From Clytia hemisphaerica (Eukaryota), in assembly GCF_902728285.1 (NCBI RefSeq), contig NW_027104315.1:162032-226031 (forward strand): a DNA stretch of 64,000 nucleotides, given 5' to 3'. Numbering within the stretch: position 1 is the stretch's first letter; each line of letters opens with the position of its first letter. A program made the position numbers and the translations under genes. Below the pieces are notes generated by a model. It did no database searches, had not been told where the DNA came from, and saw only the letters and a list, made by a program, of their open reading frames with translations. Shown here piece by piece: positions 47,067 through 47,709 of this stretch.

Positions 47067-47709
47067 GCTTTACGAGACGGCCACGCTAGAGCTGAAAATA
47101 TCTAAAGAAAGATCGTATTATAGTGATAGTGACTCGCAATGCCTCATACACCCCGACGGGAAACACATATTCAGTTTTACTAGCGAAAAACATATTACTT
47201 GTTACAGCGTCAATGACTTAGAATTAGTCTCACAATTTGAAATCCTTCCACGTAAGTCTAATGATACTGATAGTGGCGAAGATAATGATGGGAATGGCGC
47301 TGACAATGGCGGCGATGACGGTGCTAATGGCGATACAAACAACAGCGAGGGCGGATGTAATAACGAAGATGGCGGTAAAATCAATGAGGATGTCGCTGAT
47401 AATGGCGGGATTGGAGACAAGAACAACGGAGATGGCGGTAAAATCAATGATGATGTCGCTGATAATGGCGGGAATGAAGACAAAAACAACGGAGATGGCG
47501 GTAAAATAAATGATGACGTCGCTGATAATGGCGGGAACGGAGACAAAAACAACAGAGATGGCGGAGATGGCGGTGAGGAAACTGAAAATGTTGACGATGA
47601 TGAAGAAGATGATGGGAGTATGGTTGATCTAAGATGCATGACTCTAGACGTTACTGGCAAGAAGTTAATGGTTGTTGCAGAGGATGGTAATACAGGAAAT
47701 ATTATTAAG
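47067..47709 (+). CDS. NWD1-like gene exon 15: WD40 blade sequence interrupted by an acidic Gly/Asp/Asn-rich insert with three tandem 21-aa repeats (GDGGKINDDVADNGGNGDKNN), then LRCMTLDVTGKKLMVVAEDGNTGNIIK
   Basis: 643-nt stop-free frame in an AT-rich region; acceptor ttttttttacag|; donor aag|gtagat; phase 2 in and phase 0 out fit the neighbouring exons. Confidence 0.5.

Follow-up and report, generated by a model that had tools for sequence, protein, structure and literature searches.

An expanded acidic inter-blade loop, probably a coding minisatellite, in a NACHT–WD40 gene of Clytia hemisphaerica

Exonic minisatellites, or variable number tandem repeats (VNTRs), are known, for example, in yeast adhesins and in mucins, and the classical cases are extracellular or belong to the cell wall. 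Fungal NOD-like receptors (NLRs) carry highly similar internal WD40, ankyrin (ANK) or tetratricopeptide (TPR) repeats; the repeating unit in these proteins is a whole structural repeat, and its variation alters the binding surface. Inserted tracts in Plasmodium proteins are typically Asn/Lys-rich. In the WD40-repeat (WDR) proteins of Plasmodium falciparum, species-specific low-complexity insertions are located in the inter-blade loops, with the fold intact (PMC4456382). Most ligands of WD40 propellers bind at the top face, which is made up of the d–a and b–c loops (PMC3419727), and in DCAF1 (VprBP) an acidic loop between WD40 repeats 7 and 1 forms salt bridges with basic residues of partner proteins (PMC4400269). 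Here, we analyzed a stretch of 64,000 nucleotides from the hydrozoan Clytia hemisphaerica (contig NW_027104315.1, positions 162,032 to 226,031, forward strand; hereafter, the window), in which one exon of a gene for a predicted NACHT–WD40 protein carries a threefold tandem repeat of 63 nt within a long acidic tract. We conclude that this tract is very probably a lineage-specific coding minisatellite that inflated an ancestral acidic d–a loop, and that in functional terms it may be mainly tolerated and nearly neutral.

Tandem Repeats Finder reported one strong array in the exon, at 47362-47564, with a period of 63, 3.2 copies, 92% matches, 0% indels and a score of 343. A 38-nt core of the unit was found exactly three times in the 64-kb window, at a spacing of 63 nt, whereas 0 copies were expected from 100 dinucleotide-preserving shuffles. 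The copies are thus arranged head to tail, as in a coding minisatellite (exonic VNTR), and the unit length of 63 nt corresponds to 21 codons, a multiple of 3 that leaves the host frame unbroken. With codons counted from 47068, the frame of the exon, all three units follow the consensus E/GDGGKIN[E/D]DVADNGG[I/N][G/E]DKNN. They are flanked by degenerate relatives rich in Asp, Asn and Gly, DNGGDDGANGDTNNSEGGCNN ahead and RDGGDGGEETENVDDDEEDDG behind, so that the whole low-complexity tract spans 47257-47619 (363 nt, 121 aa, protein residues 1337-1457). An earlier reading made from the sequence alone (the sequence-only reading) had placed it at 47290-47600; the tract itself was correctly recognized, as was its stop-free threefold 63-nt repeat, and its extent proved to be wider. 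The components of the array are as follows.

47257-47364, plus strand: degenerate D/N/G-rich part ahead of unit 1, read as older, SNDTDSGEDNDGNGADNGGDDGANGDTNNSEGGCNN
47365-47427, plus strand: 63-nt unit 1, EDGGKINEDVADNGGIGDKNN
47428-47490, plus strand: 63-nt unit 2, GDGGKINDDVADNGGNEDKNN
47491-47553, plus strand: 63-nt unit 3, GDGGKINDDVADNGGNGDKNN
47554-47619, plus strand: degenerate fourth unit and poly-acidic tail, RDGGDGGEETENVDDDEEDDGS
47608-47619, plus strand: DDGS, the last four codons of the tail, aligned with the T-D-D-G-S of homologs
Predicted tryptic peptides of the tract: INDDVADNGGNEDK and INDDVADNGGNGDK

The 121 residues of the tract consist of 24% D, 25% G, 20% N and 8% E. Acidic residues number 39 and basic residues seven, and hydrophobic residues (V/I/L/M/F/W/Y/C) occupy nine positions. 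The GC content of the tract is 46%, that of the other exons 39% and that of the introns 35%; within the window, it ranges over 31-40%, in line with the 35% reported for the Clytia genome (10.1101/369959). When the 363-nt tract was shuffled by mononucleotide, a given frame was free of stops in 0.025% of the shuffles. The three units vary at 8 sites. Read in the exon frame, 4 of these differences are synonymous, against an expectation of about 1.6; the other two frames gave 0-1.5. The binomial p value, calculated by hand, is about 0.05, and this synonymous excess hints, as weak evidence, at constraint in the exon frame. Outside the array, blastn and tblastn searches with the tract found no copy of the 63-nt unit elsewhere in the 64-kb window, as DNA or as protein, apart from chance matches of 11-13 nt, and the unit core had 0 matches in the metagenome contigs of JGI. 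Two of the three antisense frames are also free of stops across the tract. The sequence-only reading took the P/S-rich open reading frame (ORF) on the minus strand for a mere antisense reading of the repeat, and we agree: the ORF is present, homology favors the sense strand, and we therefore do not regard it as a gene.

47202-47660, minus strand: antisense P/S-rich ORF, a by-product of the purine-rich, stop-poor repeat, no gene

To place the tract in its gene, the gene model was rebuilt with intron-less, transcript-like homologs (contigs from ENA, Logan and JGI) as guides, which were retrieved with the C-terminal region as the query of an exhaustive HMMER search (P0004, P0005, P0007, the P0009 cluster, P0012 and P0021). 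Homolog guidance supplied two small exons, 19416-19557 and 40268-40344, that were absent from the first ORF-based model. An exact-sequence look-up showed that the 1665-aa product of the resulting model is identical to RefSeq XP_066930004.1 and UniProt A0A7M6DQ59. Therefore, the repeat-bearing exon is exon 16, not exon 15 as had been counted before, and the tract is part of an annotated protein. All 214 codons of this exon are open, in one sense frame only. In the lines below, a slash marks the splice junction.

14538-49506, plus strand: host gene, 19 exons, all GT-AG, with a 4998-nt coding sequence for 1665 aa and a single terminal stop
47067-47709, plus strand: exon 16, repeat-bearing, acceptor ttttttacag/G, donor AAG/gtagat, starting in phase 2 and ending in phase 0

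An open frame of 77 codons lies in intron 15 at 41481-41711 (plus strand); the 201 nt from 41510 to 41710 would join exons 15 and 16 in phase and look vaguely blade-like. We dropped the frame as an exon, as it has no counterpart in any homolog; it is also absent from XP_066930004.1, and a Pfam search with it returned nothing but a sub-threshold HTH_45 match. It may represent a cassette exon, decayed or cryptic, or have arisen by chance.

Word-indexed searches with the exon or with a rough C-terminal model were nearly empty. As the exact RefSeq protein XP_066930004.1 is itself in the collection searched, the small number of matches reflects the limited sensitivity of these searches rather than absence. 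The sole close match to exon 16 was P0001, a protein of 130 aa from Clytia hemisphaerica (EukProt EP00111, TCONS_00055820), which begins at the Met codon at 47620 and continues through the next two exons (47709 to 48053-48176 to 48555 and beyond). P0001 is derived from a transcript and spans the 3' splice junctions of exon 16, which confirms them. It extends about 10 nt beyond the donor AAAG/gtataa into intron 18 (48720-48730, plus strand), where it reads KGTIF and the genome KGIIF, and one further residue differs from the window (ESEQDV instead of ESEKDV). The sequences thus point to a read overhang plus an allelic difference in the v1 annotation.

The tract is present not only in the coding sequence of XP_066930004.1 but also in that of a second Clytia protein, TCONS_00020849 (P0167, 1615 aa), of the same 90% cluster. 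The older Clytia gene set, to which P0167 belongs, took its gene structures from mapped RNA-seq data by means of cufflinks and cuffmerge, and its proteins were predicted by TransDecoder (10.1101/369959). As judged from these two independent gene models, the tract is retained in the coding sequence.

The domain composition of the host protein was determined with Pfam. DUF4062 (PF13271) was found at the N-terminus with 29.1 bits against a cut-off of 24.7, NPHP3_N (PF24883) with 33.0 bits against 24.8, and WD40 (PF00400) with 41.8 bits against 27, at residues 1579-1614. NACHT (PF05729) scored 23.7 bits, just below its cut-off of 26.7, and the Walker A motif GEPGCGKS is present. The NWD1-type winged-helix profile (PF25469) stayed below cut-off at 12.3 bits against 27 (E = 0.16), as did the TEP1 propeller profile (PF25047) at 30.7 bits against 89. 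TROVE was missing from all 11 families that the N-terminal 981 aa matched at E<=1, and likewise from the 25 best of the 28 families that the full protein matched at E<=0.01. RefSeq names XP_066930004.1 "telomerase protein component 1-like [Clytia hemisphaerica]"; on these domain matches, we assign it to the DUF4062–NACHT–WD40 type of signal transduction ATPases with numerous domains (STAND), that is, to the STAND nucleoside triphosphatases (NTPases), and not to TEP1 orthologues. The protein starts with MGSIVSSKKKK (14538-14570, plus strand), with Gly2, Ser6 and then a polybasic run, which we take to resemble an N-myristoylation signal with a basic-patch membrane anchor. A metatranscriptome homolog of 413 aa (P0158) has a MGMIIGKKK start, an acidic linker and then directly the last propeller; its sequence suggests a short isoform or a paralog without the NACHT domain.

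Furthermore, the position of the tract in the propeller was predicted. Pfam WD40/propeller profiles reach residue 1331 and pick up again at about residue 1507. AlphaFold2, run on residues 1135-1665 with a 10-row alignment, gave an all-beta model with a mean predicted local distance difference test (pLDDT) score of 71 and a predicted template modelling (pTM) score of 0.64. The tract, residues 203-323 of this target, has a pLDDT of 29-38 and no secondary structure. Outside it, the model shows a 4-strand periodicity at a pLDDT of 80-95, as in a seven-blade propeller; upstream of the tract lie strands E164-166, 172-176, 181-186 and 192-197 (pLDDT 85-90), and directly downstream lies E325-332. The claims of the sequence-only reading that WD-blade sequence stands on either side, and that the tract is a disordered, highly acidic loop within a propeller, are therefore borne out by the profiles and by the model, with pLDDT values of about 30 between confident strands. 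Foldseek aligned the ordered part across the gap with WDR61 (3ow8; target template modelling (TM) score 0.83, root-mean-square deviation 3.0 Å) and with WDR5 (TM 0.75-0.81). A PDB sequence search returned generic WD40 matches in the first blades and in the post-insert blades only, with nothing spanning the insert.

47068-47244, plus strand: propeller sequence upstream of the loop (LYETATLE...LVSQFEI), from homolog alignment and AlphaFold2
47224-47241, plus strand: strand D, LVSQFE (target residues 192-197), AlphaFold2, pLDDT 85-90
47245-47622, plus strand: complete D-to-A inter-blade connection of 126 aa (LPRK...DDGSM), from homolog alignment and AlphaFold2 strands
47623-47646, plus strand: strand A of the next blade, VDLRCMTL, directly after the loop, AlphaFold2, pLDDT about 95

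The strands run a-b-c-d as CLI, HIFSF, HITCYS and LVSQFE, followed by the loop and by VDLRCMTL as the next a. In the predicted fold, the tract thus occupies the d–a loop, the site of the canonical "GH" dipeptide, and the connection, with a net charge of about -30 over its 126 residues, is predicted to leave the propeller on the top face.

The same connection was then compared among relatives. From strand D (...VSQFEI) to strand A (VDLRCMTL), it measures 126 residues in the window protein, 72 in P0167 and 6-9 in seven homologs, none of which has the insert that the sequence-only reading had suggested looking for in relatives. The homolog loops read FETDDSG, LDSDDGS, LPTDDGS, FPTDDGS, IDEDLSRKW, TRELNH and IPEDNTC, the last belonging to the Clytia paralog A0A7M5XKT8 (XP_066927269.1). 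Their consensus is T-D-D-G-S, and the window tract terminates in ...EEDDGS, which aligns with it.

Within the species, the window protein (P0166) and P0167 align over 1611 columns with 97.1% identity. P0167 has one unit where the window and RefSeq have three, and the gap amounts to exactly 42 residues, or two units; the first half of its single unit is unit-1-like and the second half is unit-3-like. Two further gaps in the P0167 tract comprise 8 residues (LPRKSNDT) and 4 residues (DNGG). Frame-disrupting indels had been named as the sign that would speak against a coding repeat; what we observed was the opposite, with indels of 42, 8 and 4 codons all in frame. As neither the 126-nt nor the 24-nt gap fits GT-AG boundaries, these are genomic length differences rather than splice variants. 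The array thus differs in copy number in frame, as an exonic VNTR does, in a comparison of two assemblies rather than of a population sample. The substitutions between P0166 and P0167 are blocky: columns 1-500 and 901-1200 contain none, columns 501-900 contain 21 and columns 1401-1669 contain 25. This pattern suggests a mosaic of two haplotypes in one assembly. P0001 represents a third, window-like fragment within the same old Clytia gene set.

Taken together, we propose that the last 7-bladed propeller ancestrally had a short acidic loop, T-D-D-G-S, with a length of about 7 residues. The simplest history would be an expansion from inside this short loop, on the slippage-prone codons GAT GAT GGN, with growth to 126 residues through repeated slippage or unequal exchange on GAT/AAT/GGN-type codons; the triplication of the 63-nt (21-codon) unit would be the latest step. 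Because the tract is absent in all relatives, varies in length within the species and contains no motif, the expansion is most likely tolerated and near-neutral. The floppy negative segment could act as a "lid" or "lasso", either shielding the top face or drawing in basic partners, and any effect would most plausibly be steric or electrostatic at this face. Several points weigh against this interpretation. Retention in the mRNA rests on two gene models, and the Gnomon model may be partly ab initio at exon 16. Near-neutrality is a default assumption, and the synonymous excess among the units hints at some constraint. The exit of the loop on the top face was placed by strand topology and not from model coordinates. 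The best non-Clytia matches are only 39-48% identical, with no true ortholog among them by which to date the expansion. In addition, the difference of three copies versus one could stem from an error in the short-read v1 assembly, which is unlikely for reasons considered below.

Whether the tract is translated at all was questioned by the sequence-only reading, which offered a cryptic intron or a satellite as the alternative. The donor-like hexamer on which the former depends does exist, although neither gene model uses it.

47252-47257, plus strand: internal donor-like hexamer gtaagt

In its context, CAC/gtaagt, it would make a good donor. All 192 in-frame GT..AG pairs inside exon 16 were enumerated, and this gtaagt pairs in frame with the AG at 47646-47647, giving an intron of 396 nt (47252..47647), or with that at 47679-47680; the two open antisense frames might likewise point to a tract that is open for reasons other than coding. 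Both the RefSeq and the RNA-seq-based model nevertheless read through the tract. The transcript-derived P0001 includes 47620-47647, inside the candidate intron; in the 20 nt ahead of the candidate acceptors, pyrimidines make up at most 50%, compared with 60-80% at three confirmed acceptors, which are few real sites; and no GT-AG boundaries accommodate the 42-aa gap of P0167. A crude consensus splice-site score placed wrong junctions above transcript-confirmed ones and was not used as evidence. A non-coding satellite that merely happens to be open, for its part, is contradicted by a period that is a multiple of 3, by indels that are all in frame and by a unit found nowhere else in the window. 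We rejected both readings on the read-through of the two models, the coverage by P0001 and the uniqueness of the unit, and a non-coding tract is hardly credible. An artefact could also be confined to the copy number, by expansion here or by collapse in v1. The v1 Clytia genome was assembled from Illumina and 454 reads with SOAPdenovo2, its haplotypes being separated and merged with Haplomerger2, and about 0.9% polymorphism was reported for it (10.1101/369959); short reads, merged haplotypes and the blocky differences, such as haplotype mosaics would give, would all suit an error of this kind. However, the units differ every ~10-20 nt, so that a k = 91 assembly graph holds no 91-mer common to them, and the P0167 tract has substitutions of its own and two extra indels outside the array. 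An assembly artefact in place of real polymorphism is therefore improbable.

If the tract is coding and truly variable, as we prefer to read it, it may still have a function. A selected polyanionic lid or lasso on the ligand face, acting as an auto-inhibitory pseudo-ligand, as a nucleic-acid mimic or by capturing basic partners, with copy number tuning a threshold, would agree with the predicted exit on the top face, the strong negative charge, the loop that is already acidic in most homologs, the synonymous excess, the purely in-frame length differences and the precedent of DCAF1, whose acidic loop contacts basic degron residues through salt bridges (PMC4400269). Against it stand the absence of the tract from every homolog found, the Clytia paralog included; the lengths of 126 versus 72 aa within the species, which imply that no particular length is required; and the lack of a recognizable motif or domain. 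Moreover, in-frame-only indels are equally expected for any tolerated tract in an essential frame. We regard such selection as doubtful. Its most specific form, a length-variable "rheostat" on a cnidarian NLR-like sensor, in which the loop over the top face would serve as pseudo-ligand or nucleic-acid mimic and VNTR copies (1 versus 3) would set the activation threshold or ligand spectrum, is very unlikely; if it were true, repeat slippage would diversify the alleles of a STAND receptor of the innate-immune or allorecognition type. The sequence-only reading had also been reminded of calcium binding, and a module of the EF-hand, repeats-in-toxin (RTX) or thrombospondin type-3 (TSP3) kind, or a low-affinity one of the calsequestrin kind, might be suspected from the Asp/Asn/Gly-rich composition with its DxNGG and GDGG strings; dense acidic charge can, besides, bind cations non-specifically. 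This resemblance did not hold. Regular expressions for the EF-hand (PS00018), a relaxed EF loop, the RTX motif GGxGxDxUx, the haemolysin-type pattern PS00330 and the TSP3 motif DxDxDGxxDxxD found no match in the tract, a Pfam scan of the tract alone returned 0 families, and the hydrophobic positions that such motifs need are nearly lacking (9/121). The NACHT–WD40 protein is, furthermore, predicted to be cytosolic, and free Ca2+ is low in the cytosol. The tract is unlikely to fold into a module or to chelate calcium specifically, and a dedicated calcium-binding module is highly improbable.

Other elements of the window were noted in passing. The only exon within the window of a tail-to-tail paralog, its last one, lies at 62316-62561 (minus strand) and shares 55-57% identity with the final exon of the main gene and 63% with the Clytia paralog XP_066927269.1. 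Transposon remnants are found in intron 6 (ORF 20779-21735, plus strand; GIY-YIG nuclease PF01541, 25.8 bits) and upstream of the gene (ORF 6036-7814, plus strand; reverse transcriptase RVT_1, 97 bits). The neighboring genes encode a multi-exon trypsin-like serine protease (8093-12076, plus strand; PF00089, 58 bits for exon 9711-10061) and a rhodopsin-family G-protein-coupled receptor (56984-58772, plus strand; 7tm_1, 57 bits). A dispersed repeat, ...RILC.K.HPKRPTRSKVKGWYRKSPPPPLV..., occurs at 46809-46946 (plus strand), about 120 nt ahead of the exon 16 acceptor, and at 26519-26731 (plus strand) in intron 9, and a second dispersed element, ...GGGCRPTFELWTLTGTKKEKTK..., occurs at 2477-2936 and 8156-8576 in opposite orientations, near the protease gene. 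Intron 16 contains a perfect (CGAA)x5 microsatellite at 47909-47929 (plus strand).

The feature is of an ordinary kind, a coding minisatellite that inflates a permissive loop in an already annotated protein. It offers a worked example of how a 7-residue acidic loop turns into a disordered polyanion of 126 residues that retains the ancestral DDGS at its end and leaves the blades unaffected. A length-variable loop on the usual WD40 ligand face provides a natural handle on whether such loops modulate NLR-like sensors; if the tract is neutral, it can still serve as a marker locus and as a warning for gene prediction and short-read assembly.

Among the systems introduced above, exonic VNTRs share with the Clytia tract a unit that is a multiple of three, near-identical head-to-tail copies, in-frame length changes and a low-complexity, disordered product, whereas the Clytia array sits within a propeller, a globular domain of a STAND NTPase that is predicted to be cytosolic. 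Fungal NLRs resemble it in that a NACHT-type STAND protein has an unstable tandem repeat in its C-terminal sensor domain; in Clytia, however, the unit is a 21-aa unstructured segment in one loop, and the blades are not repeated. Similarly, NWD1/TEP1-type NACHT–WD40 proteins combine a NACHT-like P-loop NTPase with a long WD40 region behind it; the Clytia protein differs from them by the lack of a TROVE hit, by TEP1 and NWD1 winged helix-turn-helix profiles below cut-off, by its N-terminal DUF4062 and by its myristoylation-like start. In the Plasmodium WDR proteins, as in Clytia, the insertion is lineage-specific and inter-blade, the propeller fold is kept and relatives have a short orthologous loop; the Clytia tract is, in contrast, a young 63-nt array, D/G/N-rich and acidic, with an apparent copy difference within the species. 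DCAF1 shows no homology to the Clytia protein past the WD40 fold, and its loop is short and conserved with demonstrated contacts, whereas the Clytia tract is 126 aa long, repetitive and length-variable and is likened to it by position and charge. The DCAF1 loop is nonetheless acidic, lies between repeats and on the upper side of its 7-bladed WD40 propeller, and provides the best functional analogy.

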